DNA of 63,682 nt, the filler included. It is 3 parts of 3 records of this genome, joined end to end, with 100 filler letters (N's around TTAATTAATTAA, not from the genome) between each part and the next. Parts side by side here need not be neighbours in the genome. Positions count along the whole stretch, not along the records: positions 1 to 31,063 come from SRR2962707_521; 2 more parts are not named here. One strand, 5' to 3'. Position 1 is the first letter of the stretch. Every line of letters starts with the position of its first letter. Positions 7,124 to 55,768 of this stretch are shown one piece after another. The position numbers and the translations under genes were made by a program. The notes under the pieces are model-generated. The model made no database searches and was not told where the DNA came from. It worked only from the letters and a program-made list of their open reading frames with translations.

Positions 7124-7138
7124 TTGGTTCGCCTGAAC

Positions 7139-8320
7139 TTAATGGGTTACGGCTGGTTCGGCCGTCGGGGCCGGCGTAGCAGCGGGTGGCGTGCCGAATG
7201 GAATGGTCCGCACTGCCCCTGCCGCAGAAAGCTTGTCCTGGCCCTCAACGACGACGCTGTCGCCGGACTTGAGACCGCCCGTCACGATATAGCGGCCCTC
7301 GACCAGCTCCCCCAAAGTCACCGGTGTCGGCGTTGCCGTACCGTCGGCGACTACGAAGACACTGGGCACGCCCAAGGTGTCGCGCACCACGGCCTGCTGC
7401 AGCACGCTGATGGCGTCGGGATAGGTGCCGCGTGGCACACGGGCCCTGACATACATGCCTGGCAGAAGGCGGTGATCAGCGTTGTCCGCCTCAGCCCGAA
7501 GACGGACATTGCCAGTCCCCTCATCGACGCTGATGTCGGAAAAGAGTGCCTTGGCCGCGATCACACCATCATCGCCCTCGCTGACGAGGATTTCGATAGG
7601 GATCGTTCCTGTCTCCTTCAGGCCGCCGCTTCTGGCGAGACTGCGCAGGTGCTCAAGCCGAGAGGCGGGCTGGCGAATATCGATATGGACACTGCCAATC
7701 TGCTGGATCGTCGCAAGGCTTGTCGTGCTGGTCGCTTCGGCCAGTGTGCCTTCGCCCGCCATTGCCGCGCCGATCTGCCCATCGAGCGGCGCCTTGATCG
7801 TCGCGAGGTCGAGCGAGAGCCTGGCCTTCTTGAGGGCGGCCTCGGCCTGGGCGACATCGGCCGAAGCCTGGGCCTGTTGCGAGCTGGCCAGGTCATAGGC
7901 CTGGTCACTGATATTGTCGCTGGCCTTGAGGGCGCCGGCGCGTTGGAATTCTGCCCTTGCCTGTTCGCGCACCGCTCGGGCCTTTTGCAACGCCGCTTCG
8001 GCGCTCGCGACATCGGCGGCATAACTTGTGGCATCGAGCTGAAAGAGCGGCTGCCCCTTTTTGACCTCGCTGCCTTCCTCAAAGTACCGCTTGACGATGA
8101 GACCACTGACTTGCGGACGCACCTCTGCTGTCTGCAAGGCTGACACGCGGGCCGGCAGTTCGTCCCAGACAGTGATCGGGCTTGTGTCGAGGGTGGCCAC
8201 CGAAACCAGCGGCGCTTCGGTGGCGGCAGGCGCTTCGGCCTGCTTCTGCGTCGGGGAACATGCGGCAAGGGCGGCGGCCAAAAGCAACGCCGGCACAGAA
8301 CGAAACGTGGTGGAGATCAT
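7139..8320 (-). CDS. RND periplasmic adaptor (membrane fusion protein)
   Basis: Lipobox LAAC, AEVRPQVSGLI..EGSEVKKGQPLFQLD, IKAPLDG, LLPGMYVRA. Confidence 0.94.
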   Translation of the reverse strand: MISTTFRSVPALLLAAALAACSPTQKQAEAPAATEAPLVSVATLDTSPITVWDELPARVSALQTAEVRPQVSGLIVKRYFEEGSEVKKGQPLFQLDATSYAADVASAEAALQKARAVREQARAEFQRAGALKASDNISDQAYDLASSQQAQASADVAQAEAALKKARLSLDLATIKAPLDGQIGAAMAGEGTLAEATSTTSLATIQQIGSVHIDIRQPASRLEHLRSLARSGGLKETGTIPIEILVSEGDDGVIAAKALFSDISVDEGTGNVRLRAEADNADHRLLPGMYVRARVPRGTYPDAISVLQQAVVRDTLGVPSVFVVADGTATPTPVTLGELVEGRYIVTGGLKSGDSVVVEGQDKLSAAGAVRTIPFGTPPAATPAPTAEPAVTH

Positions 8321-8351
8321 GATGCTACTCGAAAAGATGGGTGCGGTGCGG

Positions 8352-9737
8352 TCAATGGGACGCGGGCGTGGGCACTAATGGCGAACCGCCAAGCACACGG
8401 AAAATCTGGACTTCAGTGACTAACTGCTCAAGACGGTTGGCTGCGAGCGCGCTCGATGCTGCCCGGCTGCGTTCCTGCGCATCGAGCCAGACACGCAGCG
8501 CAACAGAACCGGCGCGATAGCGCTCTTCGGTCAGTTTTTCCGCAGATTGCGCAGCCTCGAGTGCAGCCCTCAAGCGATGCGACTTTTGATTGAGCATCGT
8601 TCGCGCACTAAGCGCGGTGCCCGTATCACTGAAGGCCGTAAGGAGCGCTGAGCGGAATTCCGTGACGGCGAGCTGATAATCGACCTCCGAAACCTTCACC
8701 CGCAACTCGCCATCGCGAAAATTGAGGAAGGGCAGCGCCAGACCCGTACCCAGTGTCGCGATCGGATTGGCCAGGATGTGAAGTAGATCGGTGCTGGCCA
8801 CACCGAGATTGCCGGTCAGCGTGATCTGCGGATAAAGGCTTGCCTTCGTGCCATCGACATTGCGCAGCGCCGAACGTAGCCGCAATTCTGCTGCCTGCAA
8901 ATCTGGACGACGTGCAAGCAGATCCGCCGGCAGGCCAGCGGTAATCTGGACCGGCGTACGTCGCGGCAAGGTCTGCGGCTCGCCAACTGGATTGGCCACC
9001 CCATTGAGCAAGACGCCAAGCGCGTTGCGAAGCACCACACGGTTCTGCTCAAGATCGGACATCGAGGCCGCCTGGCTCTCGACCGTCTGGCGCACCTCTG
9101 CCAATTCCAGCTCGGTCGCCGCACCCGCTGCTGCCTGGCTCTTGATCAGGTCCTCGACCTGGCGCGCAAGGTCGAGCGAGGCGCGGGCTGCGGCCATATC
9201 CTGGTTCGTATAGGCAAGGCGCCAATAGGCCTCGATGGTCGAAGCGATGACCGTCGTCCGCGCCGCTGCCACGTCTTGGACCGAGGCTGCTGCCTGCAGC
9301 GCTGCCATATCCTGGCTGCTGGCCAATCGGCCCCAAAGGTCGAATTCGTATGATGCCCCTAATCCGAGACTAAAATTGTTGCTGGTCGCGCTCGCGTCGG
9401 TCAGTGCCACCGCGCTCTGCACATTGCCCGTCCCGCTGAGTTGGGGGACCCTCGCCACTCCAGCCATATCTGCCTGCAACAGCGCCTTGCGCACACGCAG
9501 GTTGGCCGCGAACAGGTCGTTGTTGTGGGCAAGAACCGTCTCGACGAGTTGGTCGAGTTTGGGATCGCCGAAACTGCGCCACCACTGCACGGCGGCCGAC
9601 GGATTGGAAACGCCCGCAGTGTCTACCCACTCCAGCGCATTCGGCAGCGCCGGTCGAACGTATGGTGTGGTCAAGCTCGAACAACCTGCCAGCAAAACGG
9701 CAGGTAGGACAATTGCAAGTCGGAAGGAGGGCATCAC
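8352..9737 (-). CDS. Outer membrane efflux lipoprotein (OprM/NodT family)
   Basis: Lipobox LLAGC, WWRSFGDPKLDQL, YEFDLWGRL, LPADLLARRPDL. Confidence 0.93.
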   Translation of the reverse strand: MMPSFRLAIVLPAVLLAGCSSLTTPYVRPALPNALEWVDTAGVSNPSAAVQWWRSFGDPKLDQLVETVLAHNNDLFAANLRVRKALLQADMAGVARVPQLSGTGNVQSAVALTDASATSNNFSLGLGASYEFDLWGRLASSQDMAALQAAASVQDVAAARTTVIASTIEAYWRLAYTNQDMAAARASLDLARQVEDLIKSQAAAGAATELELAEVRQTVESQAASMSDLEQNRVVLRNALGVLLNGVANPVGEPQTLPRRTPVQITAGLPADLLARRPDLQAAELRLRSALRNVDGTKASLYPQITLTGNLGVASTDLLHILANPIATLGTGLALPFLNFRDGELRVKVSEVDYQLAVTEFRSALLTAFSDTGTALSARTMLNQKSHRLRAALEAAQSAEKLTEERYRAGSVALRVWLDAQERSRAASSALAANRLEQLVTEVQIFRVLGGSPLVPTPASH

Positions 9738-12066: not shown

Positions 12067-12720
12067 TCAACCGGGCATTGGCGCGGAGAATCCGGCGAGC
12101 AGATAGGGCAGAATCTGCTTGTAGACCTGCCGGGGATCGGAGCCCTTGAGGCGACCGCCGGAAATGGACTCAAGGCCCGGAGGGCCCTGGCGTGTCCCGA
12201 AGAACAGCAATGATCCGATCATGGCGTAGAAGCGCCAGATGATCACATCGCGATCGAGGTGCGGCAGGCAGGCGGTGATTTCATCGACAAAGGCAATGTT
12301 GACGCTGTTGAAGGCGCGTTCCGCGATCTCCTCAACAATCTCAGATGGCTCGTTCAACAATGTGGCGTGTAGCCTGGAAAAGCTATTTTTCTGGGCTTCC
12401 CAGGTTTTTGCCTCTACGAGGGGTTCGAGGTAAATCCTCAGGATTTCCTCGAGGGTCAGCGTGCGTTTTGAGCGTTTGGCCTTGGTCAGCTGATGCATGC
12501 GCTCGGCGACGTGCTGGGCTGCACTGGCGCGGATCACCTCTTCGAAAAGGCCTTCCTTGCTGCCGAAATGGTAATTGATGAGCGCCGAATTGACCTCCGC
12601 CTTCTTGGCGAGATCCCTGACCGAAACCGAACGAAAGCCCTGCTCGGCGAACAAGAGGGTTCCAGCTTCGAGGAGGCGTCGTCGCGTTTCGTTGGACGAT
12701 GCGTTGGTGGTTACGGCCAC
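12067..12720 (-). CDS. TetR/AcrR family regulator (PsrA-like)
   Basis: TRRRLLEAGTLLFAEQGF..VSVRDLAKKAEVNSALINYHFGSKEGL HTH. Confidence 0.92.
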   Translation of the reverse strand: MAVTTNASSNETRRRLLEAGTLLFAEQGFRSVSVRDLAKKAEVNSALINYHFGSKEGLFEEVIRASAAQHVAERMHQLTKAKRSKRTLTLEEILRIYLEPLVEAKTWEAQKNSFSRLHATLLNEPSEIVEEIAERAFNSVNIAFVDEITACLPHLDRDVIIWRFYAMIGSLLFFGTRQGPPGLESISGGRLKGSDPRQVYKQILPYLLAGFSAPMPG

Positions 12721-17850: not shown

Positions 17851-18639
17851 GTGCTGCTTTATCATGGGATTTCCAGTGTCTGCTCGATCAAGGTGCGCCT
17901 GTGCCTCGCCGAACTTGGGCTTCCCTATGACAGCAGGGTCCTCGACCTTCAGGCCGGGGACCAGTATGCGCCTGACTATCTTGCGCTCAATCCCAATGGC
18001 GTGGTGCCGACGCTGGTCGATGATGGTCTGGTCGTCACCGAATCCAGCCTGATCATCGAATACCTTGATCGCGCCTACAATGGCGATCGCCTGATGCCTG
18101 CGGACCGGGCTGGTGAAGTCAGGGCGCGATTGTGGTTGCTGCGCTGCCTCGACATTCATGCGGCAGTAAACACGCTCACCTTTGCCACCATTGGTCGCGA
18201 TAGGATGAGGGCCAGCAAATCGGCCGATGAAATCGAAGCCGATCTGCACAAAATGCCGAACCCCGTGGCCCGGATGAAACGCCGCGACCTGATCACCAAT
18301 GGGCTCAATTCCGTTTATCTCGACGATGCGCTGGATCGCTTCGGGCGCACGCTTTCCGATATCGCGAATGATCTTGGTCAGAATGACTGGATTTCCGGCC
18401 CTTCATTCGGCATCGCGGATATCGCCCTGCTTCCTTACATCGATCGACTGGAGCGTCTCGGATTTGAGGGGTTCTGGCGCGACGTGCCGCTGGTTGCGCA
18501 TTGGTTGGTCCGGATGCAGGCCCGGCAGAGTTATCGCACTGAAGTCGAGGGCAAGCTTGGCGCTGCCGCGACCAGCAGCATGCGAGCCGGTGGTGTGCCC
18601 TACTGGCCAAGAATTGAGAGCCTGCTGGCTTCGGGCTGA
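17851..18639 (+). CDS. Glutathione S-transferase (LigF/PcpC-like)
   Basis: SSVCSIKVRL, LNPNGVVPTL, TESSLIIEYLD, FGIADIAL; GTG start after GGGAG (upstream TTG at 17836 also possible). Confidence 0.88.
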   Translation: MLLYHGISSVCSIKVRLCLAELGLPYDSRVLDLQAGDQYAPDYLALNPNGVVPTLVDDGLVVTESSLIIEYLDRAYNGDRLMPADRAGEVRARLWLLRCLDIHAAVNTLTFATIGRDRMRASKSADEIEADLHKMPNPVARMKRRDLITNGLNSVYLDDALDRFGRTLSDIANDLGQNDWISGPSFGIADIALLPYIDRLERLGFEGFWRDVPLVAHWLVRMQARQSYRTEVEGKLGAAATSSMRAGGVPYWPRIESLLASG

Positions 18640-18670
18640 CCACATTTCCGAAGATCCGGCGGTCGGGTTG

Positions 18671-18719
18671 CATTCACAAAACTGATTGGCGACGTTCCGA
18701 ACAATCAATTTCTCTCAAT
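18671..18719 (+). promoter_or_regulatory. nod-box-like LysR (NodD) binding site
   Basis: C-ATT-CACAAAACT-GAT-N8-TTC-CGAACAATC-AAT-TTCTCTCAAT versus consensus Y-ATC-CAYNNYRYR-GAT-N7-ATC-NAAACAATC-RAT-TTTACCAATC; 100 bp upstream of the operon start. Confidence 0.65.
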
Positions 18720-18818
18720 AATCCGACCTTGTTAGCGTCCCTCTCATAAACGGGTCGTCACGCCTGAAGAGCGTGCTGCCCTGAGGAGTGGCCCAATGGG
18801 CCGATTTGGGAGCTAATC

Positions 18819-19745
18819 ATGTCCACAACTCGTATGCTGTCCTCCGGTCTTGTGCTGGCCACAGTCAGTTTGTCCACGATCGGCGGTGCTATGGCGCAGG
18901 ACAGGACCATCGCATTTTCGCCGCTGTCCCTCGACATTCCAGCGATGCAGGGCCTGTCCGGCGCGCTGAACCATTTCGCCGATGAGGCGGGCATTGGCTA
19001 TATGGCGCTCGACCCCAAGTTTGACGCCACGACCCAGGCCCAGCAGCTGGCGCAGGTCATCGAAACCGGCCGCGTCAACGGCGCCTGGGCCATTACCATT
19101 GGTGCACCAGCTCTGCGTAACGTCGTGCAGCGCGCGGTCGAGAGCGGCATTCCGATGGTCGTTTCCGGCCGGCCCGGAGACTACGGTCTCAGCGAGCCCC
19201 AGCCGGGCATTGCCTTTTCCGATATCGACTATGAAGACTACGGCACGACCATTGGCCGCGAACTGGGCAATTGCATTGTCGAGAAGCTCGAGGGCGAGGG
19301 CAAAGTGTTCTTCCTCGGCGACACTTCTGGCACCGAGGCGGCCAAGATAACCGACGATTTCGGCAAGGCCGGCCTGGAATATGCGGCACCAAACGCCGTC
19401 ATCATTGCCGAAAACCTGGCCCTGGAGCGTCTGGAAAGCCAGCAGAAGGTCTCACAGATGCTGCTGGCGCATGGCGACGCCAATGCGGTCTATGCCTCCA
19501 ATGACGAAAACGCCATGGGTGCCCTGCAGGCCTTTGAGGCTGCCGCACTGCCGACGCCCTGCATCGTGTCGGGCGGCGGCTCCGACGAGGTCCTCGGGTT
19601 TGTGGAGAGCGGCAAGATCTATGCGGCGGCCGGCTTCGACTTCGAAGGCGATGCACATCAGAACTTCCAGACTCTTTTGGCCATGATGGACAAACCGACC
19701 GAGCTCGGTCCCATCCTTTCCATCCCGATCAAACTGACGAAGTAA
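18819..19745 (+). CDS. Sugar ABC transporter substrate-binding protein (RbsB/CUT2 type)
   Basis: Signal peptide AMA-Q, periplasmic binding protein motifs AVESGIPMV, AVYASNDENAMGALQA. Confidence 0.88.
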   Translation: MSTTRMLSSGLVLATVSLSTIGGAMAQDRTIAFSPLSLDIPAMQGLSGALNHFADEAGIGYMALDPKFDATTQAQQLAQVIETGRVNGAWAITIGAPALRNVVQRAVESGIPMVVSGRPGDYGLSEPQPGIAFSDIDYEDYGTTIGRELGNCIVEKLEGEGKVFFLGDTSGTEAAKITDDFGKAGLEYAAPNAVIIAENLALERLESQQKVSQMLLAHGDANAVYASNDENAMGALQAFEAAALPTPCIVSGGGSDEVLGFVESGKIYAAAGFDFEGDAHQNFQTLLAMMDKPTELGPILSIPIKLTK

Positions 19746-19751: not shown

Positions 19752-20825
19752 ATGTCACACGACGCGATCAACGCTGGCGCTCCCTCGGGGGGCGCCATCA
19801 ACGGGGCAGCCGCGAGCAAGACCCACCTGCCCGCCGACATTGCCGTCCTGGTGTTCCTGCGGGACCGCGGTATCTTTGTGCTGTGGGTCTTGCTCCTCGT
19901 GGTCTTTGCCATTTGGAACCACCCGTATTTCGCCACCATCAACAATGCCATGTTGATCGTCAGCGCCGCGTCGCTGACGGCCATCTTTGCAGCGGCAGTG
20001 GCGGTGGGCCTGTTTTCAGGAGCGCTTGATCTATCGTTGCCCGGCGTCGCGGCACTTGCAACCTGTGTCGTGGGCGTGCTGATCAAGCAGTACGGGGTGC
20101 CGGTGCCGTTGTCCCTTCTGGCCGGCGTGGGCGTCGGTGTGATCTGCGGCCTGGTTAACGGCTCTATCGTGCTGCGCGGTCTCAACCCGCTAATCGTCAC
20201 GATCGGCACGCTGTCGGTGACATCGGGCCTGGCCGCACTGGTCGTCGGTGGCTATGCGATTTCGGGCTTGTTCGAACTCGAATTCATGGGCTCGGCCCGC
20301 TATCTCGGCATACCGTCACATGCTTACATTGTTGCCGTCGTCTACGCCGGGTTGACGGTGTTTCTCACCCGTACCCGCCACGGCATTCGCATGCGGGCGG
20401 TTGGCGGCAACGCCGAAGCCGTGCGCCGCGCAGGCCTCAGTGACCAGCGCTACAAGATATTGGGCTTTGTCATCTCGGCCATGCTGGCGTCACTGGGCGG
20501 CATCATGACCATGGCGCTGGTATTTGAAGCGTCTCCTTCGGCCAGTCCGTCCATCCTGTTCACGGCGCTGACCGCAGTGTTTCTCGCCGGCGTGTCGCTG
20601 GCCGGGGGCAGGGGGTCACTTCCGCGCGTGCTGATCGGTGCTTTGGTGCTGGCCACCATCTCCGATGCCCTGACCATTGCCGGCGTACAGCCCTATTGGG
20701 CAACCGTCACCACGGGGGCGCTGATGATTGGAGCACTGGTATTCGACAAGACCATGACCGAGGCTATTTCGAGCCGCCTGGTCAAGGTTTCGACTGCGTC
20801 CGTGCATGAAAGGGGCAGCAAATGA
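19752..20825 (+). CDS. Sugar ABC transporter permease
   Basis: GALDLS, TRHGIRMRAVGGNAEAVRRAG, AVFLAGVSLAGGRGS. Confidence 0.92.
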   Translation: MSHDAINAGAPSGGAINGAAASKTHLPADIAVLVFLRDRGIFVLWVLLLVVFAIWNHPYFATINNAMLIVSAASLTAIFAAAVAVGLFSGALDLSLPGVAALATCVVGVLIKQYGVPVPLSLLAGVGVGVICGLVNGSIVLRGLNPLIVTIGTLSVTSGLAALVVGGYAISGLFELEFMGSARYLGIPSHAYIVAVVYAGLTVFLTRTRHGIRMRAVGGNAEAVRRAGLSDQRYKILGFVISAMLASLGGIMTMALVFEASPSASPSILFTALTAVFLAGVSLAGGRGSLPRVLIGALVLATISDALTIAGVQPYWATVTTGALMIGALVFDKTMTEAISSRLVKVSTASVHERGSK

Positions 20826-21604
20826 CCCAGACCCGCGAAACTGCAGCCCTGCGCCTGACCGGCATTTCCAAGCACTACGGATATATCAAGGCGCTGGATA
20901 ATGTGGACCTGCATGTTCACCCCGGCGAAGTTGTGGCCCTGCTTGGCGATAATGGTGCGGGCAAGTCGACCCTGCTCAAGGTCATGTCCGGAGCCCATCA
21001 GGCCTCGTCCGGCGAGATCGCGGTGAATGGCAAGGCAGTGCACCGTTACGATCCCAAGATCGCGTCCGACCTGGGCGTGGAGATGGTCTACCAGGACCTT
21101 GCCCTGGTCGACACACTGGACATCTCGACTAATCTGCAGCTTGGCAAGGAGCCGCTGCTTCCGTTTCCGCTCAACCTTTTCGGCTTCGTCGATTTTCGCA
21201 AGATGCACCAGATCACCGAGACGCAGCTTGAGCGGCTGGGTGTGCGGACAGCGCCGCCCGAACGCCCAGTCGAAATGCTCTCGGGTGGCCAGCGCCAGGT
21301 CACGGCAATCTCCCGTTCGGCGGTGCGCCTTTTCGAACGTGGCAAGGGCACCATCCTGATGGATGAGCCGACTGCTGCGCTTGGATACGAACAGACCCAA
21401 ATGGTCGAACGGTTGATCCGGCGCATGGCCGATGAAGGTTTTGCCATCGTGCTGGTGACGCACAATCTGCCTTTGTGCTTTGCCGTGTCCGATCGCATTG
21501 TCGTGCTCAATCGTGGTCGCAAGGTTGCCGATGTTCCGCGCAGCGAGGCCGATCACAACCGCGTCGTCGCCTGGATCACAGGCGCCGAACAGGCCATCGC
21601 CTAG
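20822..21604 (+). CDS. Sugar ABC transporter ATP-binding protein
   Basis: GDNGAGKST, LSGGQRQ, MDEPTAALG. Confidence 0.93.
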   Translation: MTQTRETAALRLTGISKHYGYIKALDNVDLHVHPGEVVALLGDNGAGKSTLLKVMSGAHQASSGEIAVNGKAVHRYDPKIASDLGVEMVYQDLALVDTLDISTNLQLGKEPLLPFPLNLFGFVDFRKMHQITETQLERLGVRTAPPERPVEMLSGGQRQVTAISRSAVRLFERGKGTILMDEPTAALGYEQTQMVERLIRRMADEGFAIVLVTHNLPLCFAVSDRIVVLNRGRKVADVPRSEADHNRVVAWITGAEQAIA

Positions 21605-21631: not shown

Positions 21632-22477
21632 ATGTTAGAAACGATCACCATCGGCGACCGCGATGGGGAACCCCTCCGTGCCGATTTCTTCAAGCCGGCT
21701 AAAGCCGGTGCCGCCCTGCCGCTGATCGTGGCGGCGTCCGGCGGTGGCTGGCGGCGCGGCAATCGTCAGGCCCTGGAGGCATGGGGCAGGTTCTTCGACG
21801 CGCACGGCTTTGCCTTTGCCAGCATTGACTACGCAAGGGCCAGTACCGGGCCATCCTGGCCGCGCAACGCCCAGGATGTTGCCCAGGCGCTGCGCTATTT
21901 CGCAGCCAACGGTGTGGCGCACGAAATTGATCCTGAAAGGGTCGGCGTACTCGGCGTGTCCGCCGGGGCCCACCTGACAGCGCTGGCGCTGCTGTCCGAT
22001 ACCTTTGAAACGCCTCCGGTCCGCTGCTTTGCAGGCATTTACGGCGTCTACGATCTGATGGCGCATTGGCAGCACGACCTGGCGGCACATGGCCGCCCCG
22101 GCGAGGACTTGACCGAACGCATGATCGGTTGCACGCCTTACGACGACCCACAGCGCTTCCACGACGCGTCGCCTTTGCGGCAGATCACCTATGCCAAGGC
22201 CATGCCGGTGCTGTTGAGCTGGGGCCACAATGATCGTGAGGTCAGCCCGGAACAGTCGGCCCGGTTCGCCATTGCTCTCAAGCAAGCAGGTTTTCCTGTG
22301 CGCTGTCGGGAGTTCGACGAAGCGGGCCATTTTTGGTTCAGCGAGGAAGATCCTGCGGTGTCCGGCACTCTTTCGGCGCGGCTGGCGCCCGAACTGATGC
22401 TGTTCTTCAATAGATCGCTGGCTCCTGCGGAGGCGGGTGTATCCCAGTTTACGCTGGCTTCGCGAGCCGTGATCTAG
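21632..22477 (+). CDS. Alpha/beta hydrolase, HSL-family esterase
   Basis: Oxyanion SGGGW, nucleophile elbow GVSAG, Asp in NDREV, His in AGHFW. Confidence 0.87.
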   Translation: MLETITIGDRDGEPLRADFFKPAKAGAALPLIVAASGGGWRRGNRQALEAWGRFFDAHGFAFASIDYARASTGPSWPRNAQDVAQALRYFAANGVAHEIDPERVGVLGVSAGAHLTALALLSDTFETPPVRCFAGIYGVYDLMAHWQHDLAAHGRPGEDLTERMIGCTPYDDPQRFHDASPLRQITYAKAMPVLLSWGHNDREVSPEQSARFAIALKQAGFPVRCREFDEAGHFWFSEEDPAVSGTLSARLAPELMLFFNRSLAPAEAGVSQFTLASRAVI

Positions 22478-22503
22478 CTCATTCGAGCGTGGAGGAGGAG
22501 CCG

Positions 22504-22950
22504 ATGGACATTACCCCGGACGATTTTCCCGAGATCCGCTGGCACGGCCACTGGATCTGGATGGGTGACAGCACCATTGAAATGGGTTCGCCTGCCGGCG
22601 GGGATCGAAAGCCGCGTCCGCCTGCTCATGGCCTCTTCCGACGCTGCTTCGACCTGGCCTCGGTGCCCGGACGGGTCCCTGCGCGCATCACCGCGGGTTC
22701 GCGCTACATGCTGTTCATCAACGGCCAGCGGCTCGGATATGGCCCCATCCGCGGACATTACCGGCGTCTTTCCTACGACATGAACTATCTGGCGCCGTAT
22801 CTGCAACCGGGCCGGAACACGATTGCCGTCCTCGTCTCGGTCCGTGATGGCAGCCTGGACATAGAAAGCCCGGTTCCGATGCTGGTCGACCTGCCCGGAA
22901 ACCCCGAACAACGCCATCCTGCTGGGTGCACGACAATCAACCTGGACTAG
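22504..22950 (+). pseudogene. Internally deleted alpha-L-rhamnosidase (GH78): N-terminal domain fused to C-terminal tail
   Basis: WIW..LFRRCFDL..ARITAGSRYMLFINGQRLGYGP..YDMNYLAPYLQPGRNTIAVLV is the rhamnosidase N-domain; only about 148 aa, catalytic barrel absent. Confidence 0.7.
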
Positions 22951-22976
22951 ACGCGGCCCCGGCCGTGGGAGGATTT

Positions 22977-24629
22977 ATGCAAGACGACTTTTCTCAAGCC
23001 CCGTTCAACCTGGGTAAGGACGACCTGGCCTGGATCGAGGATCGCATGGCGGCGCTGACGCCGCGCCAGAAGATCGCGCAGCTCTTCAATGTGCTGCTGT
23101 GGGGTTCGGACCCCGCGGCTGTCGCCATGGTGGAGGAATTGCAGCCCGGTTCGGTGGGACGGTTCGATGTGGTCGATGTCGAGAGCGAACGGACGCTGCT
23201 CGATAGGCTGAATGCCAGCTTCACCGTGCCTATGGTGGTGACAACTGATCTAGAGGGCAGTTTTGCCTCGCCCAAGGGCTCGACCCCGTCTCCAAATCCC
23301 ATGGCCTTTGCTGCCATCAATGATCCCGACACGACCGAGAAGGTGTCCGCTGCCATGGCGCGGCAGGCAGCGGAAATCGGCATCAAGTGGTCTTTTACCC
23401 CCGCTGTGGACATCAACAAGGCTTGGCGGTCTGGCATTGTGGGGACGCGCAGCTTCGGCTCCGATCCAGAAAAGATCCGCGAACAGGCGCTGGCCCATAT
23501 GCGCGGCCTCCAGGGTGCCGGTTGCGCCGCCACCGCCAAGCATTGGCCGGGCGAGGGCTATGACGACCGCGATCAGCACCTGGTCACCACGGTCAATCCG
23601 CTCTCGGTCGCCGAATGGGAGTCCACCTATGGCCAGCTCTATCGGGCCCTCATTGAAGGCGGCGTGCTTACCATCATGCCGGCCCATATTGCCTTTCCGG
23701 CCTATATGCGGGACGTCGAGGGTGTAACAGGGCGCGACGCCTACAGGCCCGCCTCGATCAACCGGGCGCTCAACGAGAACCTCCTGCGTGGCCGACTTGG
23801 CTTCAAGGGTCTGCTGGTGTCCGACGCTACGCCCATGGCAGGGCTCACCTCCTGGATGAAGCGGGAGAACCTCGTCGTCGAACTGCTCAATTCCGGTTGC
23901 GACGTCATTCTGTTTGCCAAGGATCTGCGTGCCGACATCGAAACCCTCGAAGCGGCCTTGGCCGATGGCCGGGTGAGCTGGGACCGTGTGGACCAGGCCG
24001 TGCGGCGGCAGCTGGCCCTTAAGGCCCGGATCGGCGTCCGCAAGAACCACGGCATGTTGCCGCCTCCGATGCAAAATGGAGACGATGCCAAGGCCATTGC
24101 CGAGGCGCTCAAGCGCGCACCAACGCTGGTCAAGGACAGCAACCAGCACTTGCCCATGACCCCGGATCGCTATCGAAAGGTGTTGCTGGTCTCCAAGGGT
24201 GTGGTGTTTCCGCCGGCGCCCCAGCCGCTGCCTTTGGCGCTCATCGACATGATGAAGGCGGAGGGCTTCGAGGTGACCCATCACCAGTGGGGCACGCCTG
24301 TCGATCCCGCCGGATACGACCTGCTGCTCTACGTCTTTGCCGAGGAAACTCTCCTCACACGCGGCATCGTTTCGCTCAATTGGCTGGAAATGAACGGCCA
24401 GTTCGAGGCGGCGATGAACCGGCACTGGCATGACGTGCCCACGATCATGGTGTCGTTCGGCTGGCCCTATTACCTGGCCGAGGCCACGCTGGTGCCGACC
24501 TATATCAACGCTTATGCCGCCCACCCGGCCATGCAGCGCAATGTGCTGGATGCCATGATGGGCCGTGCAGGGTTTCCCGGCGAAAGCCCGATGGACGCTT
24601 GGTGTGGCATCGATCCAGCGATCTGCTGA
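22977..24629 (+). CDS. GH3 glycoside hydrolase/phosphorylase (Nag3/NagZ-like subgroup)
   Basis: DLEG, GTRSFGSDP, KHWPGEGYDDRDQH, LGFKGLLVSDA nucleophile; cytoplasmic, start after GGAGG. Confidence 0.9.
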   Translation: MQDDFSQAPFNLGKDDLAWIEDRMAALTPRQKIAQLFNVLLWGSDPAAVAMVEELQPGSVGRFDVVDVESERTLLDRLNASFTVPMVVTTDLEGSFASPKGSTPSPNPMAFAAINDPDTTEKVSAAMARQAAEIGIKWSFTPAVDINKAWRSGIVGTRSFGSDPEKIREQALAHMRGLQGAGCAATAKHWPGEGYDDRDQHLVTTVNPLSVAEWESTYGQLYRALIEGGVLTIMPAHIAFPAYMRDVEGVTGRDAYRPASINRALNENLLRGRLGFKGLLVSDATPMAGLTSWMKRENLVVELLNSGCDVILFAKDLRADIETLEAALADGRVSWDRVDQAVRRQLALKARIGVRKNHGMLPPPMQNGDDAKAIAEALKRAPTLVKDSNQHLPMTPDRYRKVLLVSKGVVFPPAPQPLPLALIDMMKAEGFEVTHHQWGTPVDPAGYDLLLYVFAEETLLTRGIVSLNWLEMNGQFEAAMNRHWHDVPTIMVSFGWPYYLAEATLVPTYINAYAAHPAMQRNVLDAMMGRAGFPGESPMDAWCGIDPAIC

Positions 24630-24631: not shown

Positions 24632-25561
24632 CTAGAGGCCCGATGCCCCCTCGGCGTCGGGCCGATGATTGCAGATGATCCCACGGACCCATTTGAGACA
24701 GGCATCGTCCTCGGCGAACCTGCCCCATTGCAACACCAACCTATTCTCCGGGACGTCAAAGGGCAGGGGGCTGACTGCGAGAGGCAGGATTTCCGCAAAT
24801 TTGCGGGCGATGGACTCCGGCAGGGTGCCGATACGGTCCGTACCCACGACCATCCAAGGCACCGCCGAGAAGGCGTTGACGGTCACGCCGGAGCGCAGCA
24901 TGCCATGCGTCTGCTCGATCAAGTTGCGGTCGGCAGGTATTTTTGCCATCTGCCCGATTTCAACAGTGACATGGCTAGCCGCCAGATAGTCCTCGACCGT
25001 CAATGTGCGGCCGGCCAATCGGCTTTCCTTCCACATCAGACAGGCAAAGGGTTCCGAATAGAGCTCCTGCATGGGGTGCTGGGGTGAGGTGTACTGGCGC
25101 GGGATCAGCAGGAAATCCATGCGACCCTGTTCGAGATAGGCATGGGGCGGATGCGTGATCGGACGGATGTTGAAGAAAATGCCCGGTGCGAGCGCCGACA
25201 CCCTGCGGCTCACCCCGGTCATGAAAATGATACTCGCCACGTCCGAAGTCATGATCGAAATCGTGCGCTGTTGCTCCTCAGGCCTGAACTCGCGAACCGC
25301 GAGCACATTGGTGTCGATGCGGCGCAGGAGGTCCCGCACCTCTTCGTGGATGACACGGGCGCGATCGGTCATCACCATTTGGCGGCCGACCCGCACCAGC
25401 AGGTCGTCTTCGAAAAACTCCCGCAGCCGCGTCAGTGCATTGCTCATGGCCGCCTGGCTCAGATGCATGCGCTCGGCTGCTCTCGTCACACTTTTCTCAT
25501 CCAGCAAGGCTTCGAGCGCCACCAGCAGATTGAGGTCCAGATTTCGAAACCGCATGTCCAT
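24632..25561 (-). CDS. NodD-like LysR transcriptional regulator (FdeR/NodD subfamily)
   Basis: MRFRNLDLNLLVALEALL..HLSQAAMSNALTRLREFFEDDLL; DFLLIP..SPQHP; GTDRIGTLP..LQW..DDACLKWVR all parallel NodD. Confidence 0.85.
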   Translation of the reverse strand: MDMRFRNLDLNLLVALEALLDEKSVTRAAERMHLSQAAMSNALTRLREFFEDDLLVRVGRQMVMTDRARVIHEEVRDLLRRIDTNVLAVREFRPEEQQRTISIMTSDVASIIFMTGVSRRVSALAPGIFFNIRPITHPPHAYLEQGRMDFLLIPRQYTSPQHPMQELYSEPFACLMWKESRLAGRTLTVEDYLAASHVTVEIGQMAKIPADRNLIEQTHGMLRSGVTVNAFSAVPWMVVGTDRIGTLPESIARKFAEILPLAVSPLPFDVPENRLVLQWGRFAEDDACLKWVRGIICNHRPDAEGASGL

Positions 25562-25652: not shown

Positions 25653-26552
25653 ATGACGCTCGACCCGCGCTTGTTGCGTATTCTTTTGGCGGTTGCGCGA
25701 GAACGCTCGCTCTCGGCCGCCGCTGTGCGCCTCAACATGACCCAACCCTCGGTATCCATCGCCATTGCTCAGCTTGAAGACCGTGTCGGTAAGCAGGTGG
25801 TCATCCGTGATCGCAAGGGCGCGGTGCTGACGTCTGTTGGCGAGATGCTGGTGCGCCATGCCCGTGCGATCGAGAACGTTCTGTCCCATGCCGACCAGGA
25901 CTTGAAGCACCAATTGGTCGATGAGGACAGCCCGCTCACGATTGGCGGCACCACTGGCGCCCTGCTGGCCATTGTCCCCCGGACGACCAGCCTTCTGCAG
26001 TCAGAGGGCCGCGTAGTCGATATTTCGCTGGTCGACGCCACAGACCAGGATCTCGACGAATTGCTGCGCAGCCGTGCCGTGGATCTGGTGCTTTCGCCGG
26101 CGCCAGCCCGTCCAGGCCCGAGTGACATCGAGCATATCCTGCTCCTGCGCGAGCCGTTCCTTTTGGTGGCGGCCCCTGGAGTGGAGCTTCCTCAAAATGG
26201 GCTGAATGTGTCCCAGGCGGCGGGCTATCCGTGGATTCTGCCTCTGGCCCAGGGTGCCACGCGCAGCCAGGTGGAGGCCATGTTCCTCAGCGCCGATACG
26301 CCGCTCCCGCGCAACCTCGTCCGGTGCGACCTGCTGGCAACCATGAAGGAACTTGTGCGCCATACCGGCTCCCTCGCCCTTCTGCCGGCCTCGGTCGTTG
26401 AGGCAGAGATCGCTGCAGGACTGCTGCAGACCGTTCCGCTCGTCGGTGGACCACCGCCGCGCCGCCTGATTGCCCAGCGCCTGCGCAGTGCGGAATTGTC
26501 CCCGACAGCAGCGCGCTTCCTGCGCCATGCGCAAACCCTGCAGGAACTCTAA
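25653..26552 (+). CDS. LysR family transcriptional regulator
   Basis: SLSAAAVRLNMTQPSVSIAIAQLEDRVG HTH; LTTR effector domain. Confidence 0.92.
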   Translation: MTLDPRLLRILLAVARERSLSAAAVRLNMTQPSVSIAIAQLEDRVGKQVVIRDRKGAVLTSVGEMLVRHARAIENVLSHADQDLKHQLVDEDSPLTIGGTTGALLAIVPRTTSLLQSEGRVVDISLVDATDQDLDELLRSRAVDLVLSPAPARPGPSDIEHILLLREPFLLVAAPGVELPQNGLNVSQAAGYPWILPLAQGATRSQVEAMFLSADTPLPRNLVRCDLLATMKELVRHTGSLALLPASVVEAEIAAGLLQTVPLVGGPPPRRLIAQRLRSAELSPTAARFLRHAQTLQEL

Positions 26553-26666: not shown

Positions 26667-28241
26667 ATGGCGCCACGGTGGGACATCGCGATCATTGGCG
26701 GCGGGCCGGTTGGAGCCTATCTCGCCAATAGACTTGGTCTTTCAGGCCTGCGCGTGTTGGTCGCCGACCGCGAAACGGCGCCCTATGCCTTGCCGCGCGC
26801 CGTGCATATCGACCACGAAATGGTGCGCCTGCTGGCCGATATCGGCCTGGCCGACCAGATGATCACCCGGATGCGCGCCGGTGACGGACATGTGCATATC
26901 GGGGCGGACCATGGCGTCATTCGCTACCTTTCGGTTGCCGGTAGTCCACGTCGCTATGGCTACGCCAATGACTATTTTTTCTATCAGCCCGAGCTTGAAG
27001 GCGTCCTGCGCGAGGGGCTGGCTCGCTTTGACAAAGTCGAACTGCGTCTCGGGGCCGAACTGGCCGGTCTGACGCAGGATGAGCATGGCGCGACGCTGAC
27101 CTTTGCCGATGGCAGAGTCGAGCAGGTAAAATGGGTGATCGGCTGCGATGGGGCCCGCTCGACCGTCCGCAAGCTGGCCGGCATAAGGCTCGATGATCTC
27201 GAATTTGACGAGCCCTGGTTGGTCGTCGATGCCGAAGTGGATGGGCCGATATCCTTCCCGTCATTTGCCGGGGTGCCTGACGGCGCCAACCTGCAGAACC
27301 TGTCGGTGATGATGTGCGACCCGGCGCGCCCGGCCACGATCGTCCCAGGCCGTGATAACCATCGCCGCTGGGAATTCATGCTGCTGCCCGGCGAAGACGA
27401 TGCCGCAATGGCTATGCCGGAGCGGGTTTCCGAACTTGTGGCGCCCTGGGTGCAAGGCGTGAGCCACACCATCATCCGCGCCGCCACCTATCGCTTCCAT
27501 GGCCTCGTGGCCGAGAAATGGCGGGTGGGGCGCGTGTTCCTCGCAGGTGATAGCGCGCACCAGACGCCGCCGTTTTTTGGCCAGGGCATGTGCCATGGCC
27601 TGCGCGACGCCGCCAATCTGGCCTGGAAGCTGGCGCTGGTCTGTGCCGGCAGGTCCAACAGTCTGCTGCTCGACACCTACCAGCCTGAACGTGAAGCCCA
27701 GGTCCGGCATGTCATAGGGGCCGCTGTCAATGCCGGCCGCTACATCTGTGAACTTGACCCGGGTAAGGCCGCCGAACGTGACGCACGAATCCGCAGCGAC
27801 GGCGGAATGCGCTCCGCCTCCGAACTCATCGCGCCCATGGCATCCTCCATCATTTCGGCCGACGCTGGCGAACGCTTCATCAATCCGCAGCTTGGCGAGG
27901 GACGTTATCTTGACGATGCCACCGGGCGCGGTTGGGTGCTGCTCGAAACCGAACAGCATCAGCTCGGGCAAGCCGCCCGGGCCATACTGGAGGCGCTTGG
28001 TGCCTCGCGGCATGCCCTCGACGCGCTGAACGATAGCCACGCCATGCTGGCCGGCTGGTTTGCCGAACGCAACCTGACTGCTGCGCTGATCCGGCCCGAT
28101 TTCTATATCGGGCTCGTCGCCAACGCGTCGGGCCAATTGAATGACAGGCTGGTCCACATGGCGAATGCGGCGGGACTGGACCAGCGCTCCCCACACGACC
28201 TGACACAAGAAGAACCGGGAAACATCCATGCGCTTCGTTAG
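26667..28241 (+). CDS. FAD-dependent aromatic monooxygenase (MhpA/FdeE-like)
   Basis: GGGPVG, PRAVHID, FYQPELE, GCDGARS, LAGDSAHQTPPFFGQGMCHGLRDAANLAWKL. Confidence 0.9.
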   Translation: MAPRWDIAIIGGGPVGAYLANRLGLSGLRVLVADRETAPYALPRAVHIDHEMVRLLADIGLADQMITRMRAGDGHVHIGADHGVIRYLSVAGSPRRYGYANDYFFYQPELEGVLREGLARFDKVELRLGAELAGLTQDEHGATLTFADGRVEQVKWVIGCDGARSTVRKLAGIRLDDLEFDEPWLVVDAEVDGPISFPSFAGVPDGANLQNLSVMMCDPARPATIVPGRDNHRRWEFMLLPGEDDAAMAMPERVSELVAPWVQGVSHTIIRAATYRFHGLVAEKWRVGRVFLAGDSAHQTPPFFGQGMCHGLRDAANLAWKLALVCAGRSNSLLLDTYQPEREAQVRHVIGAAVNAGRYICELDPGKAAERDARIRSDGGMRSASELIAPMASSIISADAGERFINPQLGEGRYLDDATGRGWVLLETEQHQLGQAARAILEALGASRHALDALNDSHAMLAGWFAERNLTAALIRPDFYIGLVANASGQLNDRLVHMANAAGLDQRSPHDLTQEEPGNIHALR

Positions 28242-29052
28242 CTTCCGCCATCTCGACCGCCAGAGCTGGGGGCGCCTGGACGGCGACCGGGTGGTGGACC
28301 TTGGTGCTCATGCGCCCGATCTCAAGTCAGCCATTGCCGATGGTCTTCTGTCGGCAGGGGCGGACGGGCCGCGCCTCAAGAGGACCAATGTGCACCTCTT
28401 GCCGGTCATTCCAAACCCCGGGAAGATCCTCTGCGTCGGCCACAATTACGAGGAGCACCGGGTCGAGACCGGACGCGACCGGACTGACCATCCCTCGATC
28501 TTCACGCGCTTTGCCGACACATTGGTGGGCGCCGACGATCCAATCGTCCGCCCAGCCGTCTCAACCGATCTCGACTACGAGGCGGAGCTTGCCGTGGTGA
28601 TCGGCAAGCCCGGTCGCCACATCGCAGCCGAAAGCGCCATGGAACACGCCGCTGGCTTTTCGTGCTTCAACGACGCTTCTCTGCGCGACTGGCAATGGCA
28701 CACGCGCCAGTTCATCCCCGGCAAGAATTTTCCCGCCACCGGTGCTTTTGGCCCGGCCTTGGTGACTCCGGACGAGGTTGGTGACCTCGATTCCGTGCTG
28801 GTCGAGTCCTATCTCAATGGCACGCGCATGCAGGGGGCAACGCTTGACCACATGCTGTTCCCCATTCCGGCGATCATCGCCTATGTCTCGGCCTTCACCC
28901 CTCTCAGACCCGGCGACGTCATTGCCACAGGGACGCCCGGTGGCGTCGGCGCCAAGCGCAACCCGCCGGTCTGGATGAAGCCGGGCGACCAGATCGAGGT
29001 GCGCGTTTCCGGCGTCGGCAGCCTCGTCAACCGCATCGCGGCCGAGGCCTGA
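28228..29052 (+). CDS. Fumarylacetoacetate hydrolase family protein
   Basis: KILCVGHNY..H, LDYEAELAVVIG, FND.S.RDWQ, GKNF, PGDVIATGTPGGVG. Confidence 0.94.
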   Translation: MRFVSFRHLDRQSWGRLDGDRVVDLGAHAPDLKSAIADGLLSAGADGPRLKRTNVHLLPVIPNPGKILCVGHNYEEHRVETGRDRTDHPSIFTRFADTLVGADDPIVRPAVSTDLDYEAELAVVIGKPGRHIAAESAMEHAAGFSCFNDASLRDWQWHTRQFIPGKNFPATGAFGPALVTPDEVGDLDSVLVESYLNGTRMQGATLDHMLFPIPAIIAYVSAFTPLRPGDVIATGTPGGVGAKRNPPVWMKPGDQIEVRVSGVGSLVNRIAAEA

Positions 29053-29053
29053 C

Positions 29054-29974
29054 ATGAGCCAGGCGCCGCGCTTCCCCATTTGCGACCTCGCCAACGTGCA
29101 TCTGCTGGTCCCTGACCTCGACAAAGCCGTTCAATTCTACACTGCGGTGTGGGGGCTCATCGAGGCAGGCCGTCTTGATGGCGTCGTCTACCTGCGCGGG
29201 TCGGGGTCCGATCCCTATCTGGTCGCGCTGCACGCGGGTGACCGCGCGGCCGTCGTCAGTGTCGGCTTGCGCGCTGACCCACTCACTGACCTCGCGGCCC
29301 TGCGTGATCGCGTGAAAGCCGCGGGCGCGGATGTCGAGCCGATCGCGCCGGTCAGCGAATTCGGTGGCGGTCAGGGCTTTGCCTATCGTGACCGGGGCAA
29401 CCGACGCGTCACCATCGTACAGGGCGATGACCTGCTGGCGCCCCTCGACGCCCCACTGACACCGCGGCGGCTGGCTCACGTCAATATCAATACGGCCGAT
29501 GTCGAGACCGAACTGGGCTTCTATCAGAAAGCGCTAGGATTTGAGATCACCGACCGCACCAACATAATGAGCTTCGTGCGAACCAATGAAGATCACCATA
29601 TCCTGGTCCTGGCGACGGACACGATCGATACGCTCAACCATATTGCCTTTCTGCAGGACGATCTCGAGTCCGTCATGCTGGCATCCGGGCGCATGGTCGA
29701 TGCCGGTTACCCCGTTGCATGGGGGCCTGGCCGCCATGGTCCTGGCGACAATGTCTTCAACTATTTCATCGATCCGTTCGGCTTCGTCATCGAGCACACC
29801 GCCGAGATCCTGAAGGTCGACGACAGCTACAAGGTCGGCGGACCTGCCGATTGGGTGTGGCCACCCGGACGGACCGATCACTGGGGCGTTGGCCACATCA
29901 AGGGCGAAGACTGCAAGAAGGCCCAAAGGGCCATACCATTCAGCCAGGAAATATCTGCGAGGAATAATACATGA
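29054..29974 (+). CDS. VOC-family extradiol-type dioxygenase (FdeC-like)
   Basis: Two VOC domains; AHVNIN, DHHIL, LNHIAF, WGPGRHGPGDNVFNYFIDPFGFVIEH. Confidence 0.87.
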   Translation: MSQAPRFPICDLANVHLLVPDLDKAVQFYTAVWGLIEAGRLDGVVYLRGSGSDPYLVALHAGDRAAVVSVGLRADPLTDLAALRDRVKAAGADVEPIAPVSEFGGGQGFAYRDRGNRRVTIVQGDDLLAPLDAPLTPRRLAHVNINTADVETELGFYQKALGFEITDRTNIMSFVRTNEDHHILVLATDTIDTLNHIAFLQDDLESVMLASGRMVDAGYPVAWGPGRHGPGDNVFNYFIDPFGFVIEHTAEILKVDDSYKVGGPADWVWPPGRTDHWGVGHIKGEDCKKAQRAIPFSQEISARNNT

Positions 29975-30969
29975 GTAATTCGGCTATTCTGGATGCTCCG
30001 GCGGGCACCACTACGCCCTATGTCATCAAAGCCGGGCAGGGGCGCTCGGTCGTTGTCGCGGGCCAGGTGGTCCGCATCCTGGCCGGAGTTGGAGAGACCG
30101 CATCAGGCTATGGCGCAGTCATGCTGGAATCGAGCATCGACAAGCGGCCGATCCCCATGCATTTCCATGAAAAGGAACATGATACCTGGCTGTGTACCCG
30201 CGGCCGGCTGCAGATCTGGGCCAATGATCAGTGTCGGGTGCTGACCGAAGGCGACTTTGCCTATGTGCGGCCCGGCGACGTTCACTCCTATCAGTGTGTT
30301 GCCCCCCGCACGCAGTTCTTCGGTATCGTGGCGCCCGGAGGCTGGGAAGGTTTCTTCGACGATGCTGGCGAGGCCTGGGCCGCGGCTGCCTTGCCGGAGC
30401 CGACCCATCCCTATGACTTCAGCCGCATGGGGCCGGCGATGGGCAAGCATGGCGTGAACAGGGTCGAAAAGGACTATTGTCTACCCTCAAATGGAGACGA
30501 AACGGACCGTGCATTACCGGCAGGACCGGCCTCCTATGTCTTGCAGTCGGGTTATGGCGCACGTCACCGGCTCAATGGTCACCTCGCAACCACGTTGCTC
30601 GACATAACCATTACCAGCGGCGCATTGGAAATGCGGACCATCGAGGCCGGTCGAGGTGCCGCAATGCCGACTTTGCGGCATGAACAGACGCATGTGACGC
30701 TCTTTGTTCTCAACGGTAGCTTTCGACTGTCGCTCGGCTCAGAAACGCACACTTTGCATGACGGCGACTTTGCCAATATCCCTGCAGGGACCGCCTATGC
30801 CACCGAAGTGGTCAGCGGTCATGCCCGTTGGGTCCTGTCCAGCGCGAACGGCAACGGCCTGCAATATTGGTGCGCTGCCGGTGAACCAACGGAAAGCTAC
30901 TCCTTCACTGAACAAGTTTCCAGGTCGCTCGAAGCCGATTTGTCAGGAGTTGATGCAAAGCTTACCTAG
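29971..30969 (+). CDS. Quercetin 2,3-dioxygenase-like bicupin (QdoI/YxaG type)
   Basis: PYVIKAGQG..PMHFHEKEHD..GDFAYVRPGDVHSY..PGGWEGFF, second cupin SYVLQSGYG..GDFANIPAGT; layout parallels B. subtilis QdoI. Confidence 0.82.
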   Translation: MSNSAILDAPAGTTTPYVIKAGQGRSVVVAGQVVRILAGVGETASGYGAVMLESSIDKRPIPMHFHEKEHDTWLCTRGRLQIWANDQCRVLTEGDFAYVRPGDVHSYQCVAPRTQFFGIVAPGGWEGFFDDAGEAWAAAALPEPTHPYDFSRMGPAMGKHGVNRVEKDYCLPSNGDETDRALPAGPASYVLQSGYGARHRLNGHLATTLLDITITSGALEMRTIEAGRGAAMPTLRHEQTHVTLFVLNGSFRLSLGSETHTLHDGDFANIPAGTAYATEVVSGHARWVLSSANGNGLQYWCAAGEPTESYSFTEQVSRSLEADLSGVDAKLT

Positions 30970-35487: not shown

Positions 35488-35491
35488 TCGC

Positions 35492-37182: not shown

Positions 37183-37191
37183 TGGGATTCC

Positions 37192-38172: not shown

Positions 38173-38365
38173 TACTTACGGCCTTCCATGTTTCCAGCCT
38201 TTGCCGCAACCAACACCGGTTGTCGTGGCATATCTATTCCTATCGATTGGTGAAACACCGTGAGAATCACAACAGAACTCTCAATGAAATGCGCGCAATC
38301 GAGCTTGCGCGCGATCGTTCTTGCAACGCTGTAGAGCGCCTCAGCCGTGGCCTCAAAAGACCGCA

Positions 38366-40231: not shown

Positions 40232-40304
40232 GTGCCTATTTCTTCCTCAAGACCGCCAATAAGGCGATTGTCGCTTGCGCGCTTTCGAATCCAACGATAC
40301 TAAT

Positions 40305-40322
40305 TTTGCAACCGGTTGCAAA
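40305..40322. promoter_or_regulatory. LacI-type operator, copy 1
   Basis: Perfect palindrome TTTGCAACCGGTTGCAAA between divergent iol operons. Confidence 0.85.
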
Positions 40323-40347
40323 CCAATTTTCACAGAAAGCGTTCAAG

Positions 40348-41445: not shown

Positions 41446-41466
41446 AAGTTTGCGAAAGGCAGCATT

Positions 41467-42357: not shown

Positions 42358-42368
42358 GGAAATCTCGT

Positions 42369-44572: not shown

Positions 44573-44655
44573 GAACTTGCTCCACTTTTTCCCATTTTGT
44601 CGCGTTTGTTTACAGGAAGGTAAAAAAATCCGCAGCAGAAAAATTTCAAAAGCTG

Positions 44656-44673
44656 TTTGCAACCGGTTGCAAA
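44656..44673. promoter_or_regulatory. LacI-type operator, copy 2
   Basis: Identical TTTGCAACCGGTTGCAAA between lacI and the ABC operon. Confidence 0.85.
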
Positions 44674-55752: not shown

Positions 55753-55768
55753 AGAAAATTTTAGTTTC

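Follow-up and report, generated by a model that had tools for sequence, protein, structure and literature searches.

The window analysed here, a stretch of 63,682 nucleotides from a Devosia genome, carries at 18671..18719 on the plus strand a conserved element with a putative control site of about 46 bases. The element ends exactly 100 nt 5′ of the ATG (18819) of the first gene of an ABC transport operon, a placement given in an earlier note on this DNA and confirmed here by both the letters and the gene coordinates. The operon, with all of its genes on the plus strand, begins with a periplasmic solute-binding protein (Peripla_BP_4, 18819..19745) and an ABC permease (BPD_transp_2, 19752..20825), both assigned through profile matches, and continues with an ABC ATPase of 260 aa having a single nucleotide-binding domain (20822..21604), an alpha/beta hydrolase of the BD-FAE esterase family according to Pfam (21632..22477), the remnant of a GH78 alpha-L-rhamnosidase (22489..22950) and a GH3 glycosidase of the beta-glucosidase/NagZ type (22926..24629). 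Only the binding protein, among the operon products, has a signal peptide. The best NCBIfam matches of the ATPase were two-domain sugar ATPases of about 500 aa, only half of which was covered. The rhamnosidase remnant, 153 aa long, carrying an in-frame deletion and matching no family by itself, corresponds with its residues 1–117 and 114–152 to the two ends of a gene of about 830 aa in L003; some 117 residues are left of the N-terminus and some 40 of the C-terminus, with about 675 codons missing. That gene is intact in L003, L004, L043 and L046, with the L003 and L004 products matching Bac_rhamnosid6H and Bac_rhamnosid_N.

At the end of the operon, on the minus strand, lies the gene for a LysR regulator of the NodD/FdeR superfamily, here called LysR1 (24632..25555, the start probably being M3 of the ORF 24632-25561), which is convergent with the operon, 5.9 kb away from the target and divergent from a second regulator gene, the PcaQ-like LysR2 (25653..26552, plus strand). 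The earlier note had placed a NodD-like gene at the end of the same operon; the position was right, but the gene, being convergent and on the minus strand, is not a member of that operon. LysR2 is the presumed regulator of the ring-cleavage genes downstream of it, where a set of probable aglycone-degradation genes (26667..30969, plus strand) encodes an MhpA-like FAD hydroxylase, a FAH-family hydrolase, a two-domain extradiol (VOC) dioxygenase and a bicupin. The bicupin (29971..30969, plus strand) is quercetinase-like, matching the B. subtilis quercetin 2,3-dioxygenase 2h0v with an E value of 2.3e-35.

Outside of this locus, the window holds an efflux system of the RND type, with AcrB-like, membrane-fusion and outer-membrane proteins, beside an ABC exporter at 2221-9737, with a TetR regulator further on at 12067-12720. 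At 34501-43529 there is a cluster resembling those for the breakdown of inositol or sugars, which encodes MocA-type oxidoreductases, a class II aldolase, KduI/IolB, a PfkB kinase and an IolD-like TPP enzyme, and beyond which a LacI-type regulator is found at 43574-44869. At 55000-63682 the GC content falls abruptly from 52–61% to about 32–39%, and this part is probably foreign DNA.

The element consists of CATTCACAAAACTGAT (18671-18686), TGGCGACG (18687-18694) and TTCCGAACAATCAATTTCTCTCAAT (18695-18719), and as a whole appears to comprise an operator plus the −35 region. Its distal dyad, ATT-N9-GAT (18672..18686, plus strand), corresponds to the distal dyad, ATC-N9-GAT, of rhizobial nod boxes and is presumably the recognition site; it is followed by a spacer of 8 nt (18687..18694), not conserved in the alignment of instances, and by a proximal dyad, TTC-N9-AAT, with a T tract (18695..18711). 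The latter carries the core AACAATCAATTT at 18700-18711 and would be the activation site, abutting the −35 position. Both dyads contain T-N11-A (18673/18685 and 18696/18708), and their centres are 23 bp apart when taken as 18672-18686 and 18695-18709. The core and the ATTCAC-N6-GAT half at 18672-18686 were thus present as the earlier note had described them, as was the one extra base of the spacer, with 8 nt compared with 7 nt in the 14 true nod boxes that we collected.

Downstream of the element, a −10-like hexamer TAGCGT (18733..18738, plus strand; conserved as TAnnnT) starts 21 nt after CAATTT. Its columns T134, A135 and T139 were invariant in an alignment of five upstream regions, and the same distance of 21 nt was seen in eight of nine instances of the element. 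Neither a consensus sigma-70 promoter nor a terminator was found in 18500-18900, the lack of a consensus promoter being as expected for a promoter that depends on an activator, and transcription is predicted to start around 18745. Searching 18600-18900 against the Rfam families gave no match, and a DNA search of plasmids returned only a trivial match of 52 nt. The predicted 5′ leader contains a palindrome, GGCCCAATGGGCC (18790..18802, plus strand), just 5′ of the ribosome-binding site GGGAG (18808-18812); this palindrome is kept in relatives with other letters, as GGCCCCAGGGGGCC in L003 and GGCCATTGGCC in L002.

For comparison with the nod box we used 14 genuine nod boxes taken from NodA-positive genomes (7 strong NodA matches in 401 Hyphomicrobiales genomes). 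These were found using the skeleton ATC-N9-GAT-N7-ATC-N9-GAT, a few having AAT in the first dyad, which means that 12 positions are largely fixed by ascertainment and that the boxes, having been collected by their dyad pattern, provide no independent test of a definition by two dyads and a 7-nt gap. With an ungapped 49-nt position weight matrix (PWM) the element scored −1.0 bits, compared with 41.6–69.0 bits for the true boxes. This strict matrix was replaced by a gapped model allowing the spacer to vary by ±1, whereupon the element scored 14.3 bits, with 0.5 bits from the distal and 13.8 bits from the proximal half, as compared with 44.5–58.0 bits for the 14 true boxes and 26.7–34.2 bits for their proximal halves. 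Scoring of this kind had been proposed in the earlier note as a check on the resemblance, and by that check the element fell far below the genuine boxes, although it ranked first among 127,267 positions in the window. Two ATC-N9-GAT dyads with a 7-nt gap are not what the element contains, since it reads ATT-N9-GAT, 8 nt, TTC-N9-AAT, with the invariant ATC/GAT triplets altered at three of four places and both dyads degenerate; the core AACAATCRATTT, which is prominent in the consensus of the 14 boxes, is found in its proximal half.

If the element were a genuine nod box, bound by a symbiotic NodD as part of a nodulation regulon, this would agree with the shared core, the ATTCAC-N6-GAT half, the common two-dyad layout and the first rank in the window, as well as with one of the related loci being in Allorhizobium undicola, which we take to be a nodulating species. 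We nonetheless regard that explanation as very improbable, considering the low score, the changed triplets and the spacer of 8 instead of 7 nt, and also because the genes downstream encode ABC transport, an esterase and a glycosidase instead of nod, nol or noe functions, because the hosts include marine Rhodobacterales, and because no NodA match was found in the close relative G001, the one of G001–G004 that was covered by the NodA search.

Among windows shuffled with a first-order Markov model, 8 of 100 reached 14.3 bits (null maximum per window with a mean of 6.5 and sd of 4.2). The evidence for the element from the single sequence is hence only marginal, and the question of chance is settled by conservation. 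In all five aligned upstream regions the element was kept while its flanks had diverged, the invariant columns being CATTCAC, TCAATTT and part of the first dyad. The orthologous operons of Devosia, Tianweitania, Aquimixticola and Allorhizobium all have this conserved footprint in front of them; conservation upstream of such operons, a check named in the earlier note, was thereby borne out. For five of six related loci, the top match of the nod-box PWM across the entire locus was the orthologous element. The element recurs in L046, L047, L048 and L049, and the nine instances that could be aligned, corresponding to only 6–8 independent ones for the LysR1-type subclade, share the pattern ATTCAC-N6-xAT-N8-...TCAATTT, with ATTCAC invariant in eight and TCAATTT in all nine. 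In the box of L048, a Paracoccus MAG (around 7922-7965), it is the other arm of the dyad that has been retained in the distal half, with GGTGAAT in place of ATTCACC, as would be consistent with a dimer recognising a palindrome. That the resemblance should be fortuitous and the site devoid of regulatory function, as the weak significance of the single-site score would allow, is hardly credible with an element that different families and orders have kept, with a constant spacing to the −10-like hexamer, and that recurs before pathway genes in differing arrangements. The site is almost certainly a functional operator, judging from this pattern of conservation.

The related loci came from a Devosia MAG and from Tianweitania, Aquimixticola (Rhodobacterales) and A. 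undicola, with a second genome scan, using the solute-binding protein as query, adding one new locus (L046). A LysR1 orthologue was present in seven of eight related loci having the box, in three layouts and with two different target operons. The gene is convergent at the operon end in the window, L043 and L044. It is instead located upstream in L045 (Aquimixticola), where GH3 is divergent from the box, and directly upstream of the box, in tandem, in L046 (A. undicola). In L047, L048 and L049 (Alloyangia, Paracoccus and Mangrovicoccus, all three Rhodobacterales), LysR1 and the box are followed by another operon, encoding a bicupin and a BD-FAE esterase. The pairing of a NodD-like regulator with the box, as suggested in the earlier note, was thus seen as co-occurrence across genomes and gene orders. 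An exact search for ATTCAC-N27-TCAATTT in the genomes of five relatives gave only the known site in four of them and one extra match, probably by chance, in A. undicola. The stand-alone GH3 gene of that species, about 10 kb from the main locus and with a product 57% identical to the GH3 of the window, has a copy of the box with one mismatch (ATTGAC...TCAATTT) about 50 nt upstream of it (L218, 1501-1540), implying that the box follows pathway genes even when these are dispersed.

The solute-binding protein of the window is 98% identical to its counterpart in Devosia subaequoris. In D. subaequoris DSM 23447 (L042, 9001-10872), about 11 kb are missing in comparison with the window, from the permease through the VOC dioxygenase and including both LysR genes, so that the binding-protein gene (aa 1–304) directly abuts a quercetinase-like bicupin and the box is left as an orphan. 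No LysR1 orthologue was found in the genome of D. subaequoris, the one exception among the eight loci with the box, the best match there having 32% identity.

LysR1 itself has the domains HTH_1 and LysR_substrate (Pfam), and its similarity to NodD extends over the full length, with 36% identity over 295 aa to NodD1 of S. americanum (E 3e-66). Its best plasmid-borne relatives were the Alloyangia orthologue (54.8%) and then NodD1 proteins (about 37%), and many of its homologues carry automatic names such as ‘nod box-dependent transcriptional activator’ or ‘Nodulation protein D 2’. The NodD-like nature of the regulator, as claimed before, was therefore upheld, NodD1 proteins being its best named plasmid matches. 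A maximum-likelihood tree was calculated for 88 proteins by a quick search, with a very long outgroup branch that makes the root unsafe. In this tree the NodD clade comprised 11 rows with a support of 100 and excluded LysR1. Between the subclade of LysR1 (window, L043, L045-L049) and the remaining 80 rows there was a branch of 0.83 (SH-aLRT 91). A large and mostly betaproteobacterial clade included a Herbaspirillum protein. LysR1 would accordingly belong to a distinct alphaproteobacterial subclade of the NodD/FdeR superfamily, outside of the NodD clade. Within its first 66 residues, forming the DNA-binding domain, 36–37 are the same as in NodD proteins and 40–43 as in FdeR-like proteins, and its recognition helix, LSQAAMSNAL, is nearer to the FdeR type (LSQSAMSNAL) than to the NodD type (LSQPAMSAAI).

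The occurrence of similar sites was analysed in the whole regulator family using a PWM built from six LysR1-type boxes only, with a spacer of 7 or 8. For 42 of 80 genome loci of NodD-like regulators, the best match in the entire locus was within −350..+20 of the regulator start, whereas about 2 were expected from the lengths, and for a further 7 of the 80 the best match was located just downstream of the regulator gene. The result was replicated in an independent metagenome set, with 24 of 53 testable loci against 3.2 expected, after 27 of 80 loci had been dropped before the count (<3 kb, or <200 nt upstream); no members of the LysR1 subclade were found among these 80 metagenome NodD-like loci (34–43% identical). 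For seven of nine NodD-clade loci the best match was the genuine nod-box-type site. Nod-box-like operators were thus found beside NodD-like regulators in Alpha-, Beta- and Gammaproteobacteria, a spread over three classes which argues that the operator design predates symbiosis. The spacer is 7 nt in most of the family-wide sites, in nod boxes and in fdeO, but 8 nt in all nine sites of the LysR1 subclade. Published fdeO is the 73-bp operator of FdeR, as given in Table S2 of PMC12809279. By eye, the matches in L062 (Herbaspirillum), L148 and L152 are identical to fdeO at all but 1–2 positions of a 47-nt core, the assignment of L062 as an FdeR orthologue being based on the genus and this operator match only.

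Taken at the level of its letters, the element is not a canonical nod box, yet it is truly related to the nod box, because the nod-box PWM puts its orthologues at the top of most of their loci and the LysR1-type PWM conversely picks out nod-box-type sites in most NodD-clade loci. It falls in an operator class of the NodD/FdeR family that is anchored on the nod box and fdeO, being a two-dyad site of 45–47 bp whose proximal core is ...CAATC(N)ATTT and which adjoins the gene of a NodD-like regulator or its target promoter. The earlier idea of a non-symbiotic NodD/nod-box pair used for catabolism can consequently be kept with regards to the NodD-like regulator and the nod-box architecture, but not as to a strict nod box or membership of the NodD clade.

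With regards to which protein binds the element, a search of the window for a second box, which covered the LysR1–LysR2 and LysR2–hydroxylase intergenic regions, found none; neither the promoter of LysR1 itself nor the region upstream of the quercetinase-containing operon of the window has one. The next-best PWM matches in the window, at 13–16 bits, are located in an AT-rich island. Between LysR1 and LysR2, a weak AAGAAATGGATTT was considered and judged not convincing as a second box. The lack of a second box leaves autoregulation of LysR1 and control of the lower pathway unexplained. One may therefore ask whether the box is bound by another regulator, either LysR2 or an unlinked factor, with LysR1 controlling something else. 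This would be in line with the lack of a box in the promoter of LysR1, with LysR2 adjoining LysR1 in the window, L044 and L045, and with LysR regulators generally recognising T-N11-A dyads. Such an alternative nevertheless appears improbable, since L043 and L046-L049 have the box and LysR1 with no LysR2 homologue within the fetched flanks, since this type of box tracks NodD-like regulators in both the genome and the metagenome loci, and since it agrees with fdeO, the operator employed for the NodD-like FdeR. Within the fetched flanks, LysR2 was linked to the box in only two of seven related loci (L044 and L045), which argues against LysR2 as the binder. On these grounds LysR1 is, with good confidence, the protein expected to bind the element.

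As to the function of the target genes, the combination of a rhamnosidase, a beta-glucosidase, a quercetinase and an esterase corresponds, according to established enzymology, to the set of enzymes that breaking down a flavonol rutinoside, for example rutin, would require, and the locus looks like a utilisation system for rutin-like flavonol glycosides. The rhamnosidase and quercetinase homologies support the catabolic role anticipated in the earlier note and point to plant flavonol glycosides. Since only the binding protein has a signal peptide, the substrate must enter the cell as a glycoside; the type of transporter usually carries monosaccharides, so that import of a flavonoid glycoside would be unusual. 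As the rhamnosidase is deleted in the strain of the window, the pathway may here be decaying.

LysR1 could also bind the box and respond to a compound other than a flavonoid, with the inducer and substrate being another plant rhamnoglucoside, an acylated phenolic glycoside or an intermediate such as hydroxybenzoate. BD-FAE esterases act on feruloyl or acetyl esters according to the Pfam description, the GST, FAH and MhpA-like genes would fit a gentisate-type or hydroxyphenylpropionate pathway just as well, neither the bicupins nor the esterases matched a naming NCBIfam equivalog, and LysR regulators often sense intermediates. We consider this rather unlikely, because in three genomes (L047-L049) the box directly precedes a bicupin gene whose product is, over its full length, homologous (E 1.4e-66) to the structurally solved quercetin 2,3-dioxygenase of B. 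subtilis, with the window bicupin being quercetinase-like too, because a rhamnosidase with a beta-glucosidase fits flavonoid rutinosides or neohesperidosides, and because both of the characterised relatives, NodD and FdeR, sense flavonoids. For the signal being specifically a flavonol, the balance tips slightly in favour. Taken as a whole, a LysR1 operator controlling an operon for flavonol glycosides is the best explanation of the element, and we hold it to be likely.

The mechanism that we propose for this putative LysR1-controlled switch is modelled on that of related regulators. A LysR1 tetramer would bind to the two imperfect dyads, 18672-18686 and 18695-18709, with the T-rich 3′ end of the proximal dyad abutting the −35 position of a weak promoter that has TAGCGT (18733-18738) as its −10 hexamer. 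Binding of the inducer, most likely a flavonol such as quercetin or its rhamnoglucoside, would rearrange the complex as for FdeR and other LysR regulators, whereby RNA polymerase would be recruited. The glycoside would then be imported by the ABC system, with sugars and acyl groups being removed in the cytoplasm by the GH78 rhamnosidase (deleted in the window strain), the GH3 glucosidase and the BD-FAE esterase, and the aglycone would be degraded by the neighbouring quercetinase-like bicupin and the ring-cleavage genes.

Compared with the rhizobial nod box and NodD, the system of the window has in common two dyads of the ATC-N9-GAT type and a core, AACAATC(R)ATTT, with CAAT about 6 nt later. 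From the end of the box to the transcription start predicted for the window promoter there are about 27 nt, similar to the usual distance from a nod box to the transcription start. It differs in having ATT...GAT and TTC...AAT as its dyads, a spacer of 8 instead of 7 nt, catabolic targets and a regulator outside of the NodD clade. The bicupins of L047-L049 and of the window are homologous to YxaG/QdoI of Bacillus subtilis. The Bacillus quercetinase gene is under the control of TetR/MarR-type repressors and is not known to be controlled by a LysR regulator.

A closer precedent is found in FdeR of Herbaspirillum seropedicae, described in PMC10799723 and PMC12809279 as a ‘NodD-like’, non-symbiotic activator of flavonoid catabolism, there degradation of naringenin, that is used as a biosensor, and for which the model given in these sources has one regulatory site and two alternative activation sites. 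Its operator fdeO, ATTGAT-N6-CAT-N7-ATCAAAACAATCCATTTGATCAAT, has the same layout and core as the element. LysR1 differs from FdeR by belonging to another subclade, with about 38–43% overall identity, by the spacer being one base longer, by its gene being convergent and 5.9 kb away instead of divergent from the target, and by having glycoside import, deglycosylation and quercetinase as targets in place of the fde meta-pathway. The earlier proposal of a catabolic pair usable as a biosensor was hence largely right, yet not unprecedented, given what these sources describe for FdeR. Outside rhizobia, MexT of Pseudomonas aeruginosa is likewise a LysR regulator with an experimentally confirmed site containing ATC-N9-GAT, termed nod-box-like by its authors (PMC2794183), but with ATCA-N5-GTCGAT-N4-ACYAT as its motif and an efflux/redox regulon, and with neither a flavonoid link nor a AACAATCRATTT core in the passages of that paper on the site.

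In the open-access literature we found no description of the present system, searched for as a quercetinase or rhamnosidase together with a LysR regulator. What appears to be new is the distinct alphaproteobacterial subclade, the 8-nt spacer, an arrangement in which the regulator gene is not oriented divergently to its target, and the set of target genes. We tentatively propose, at somewhat less than even odds for the proposal in its entirety, that LysR1 and its box with the 8-nt spacer form an undescribed switch for flavonols (quercetin/rutin), orthogonal to NodD and FdeR, that would coordinate the import and deglycosylation of glycosides with quercetinase in Alphaproteobacteria from marine and soil habitats. 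In a wider sense, the nod-box architecture would be ancestral to the entire NodD/FdeR superfamily, with the symbiotic pair having been recruited, operator included, from regulators of flavonoid catabolism.

Such a system would be no surprise in kind, as the principle is already established by FdeR in the sources cited above. Should LysR1 indeed sense flavonols, however, it would provide a regulator/operator pair for a second class of flavonoid biosensors, current FdeR sensors responding to naringenin, and the genes under its presumed control would constitute a candidate bacterial pathway for rutin-type compounds, with an ABC importer, GH78, GH3, an esterase and a quercetinase. It would also offer a deep-branching catabolic relative for the question of how NodD and the nod box originated.
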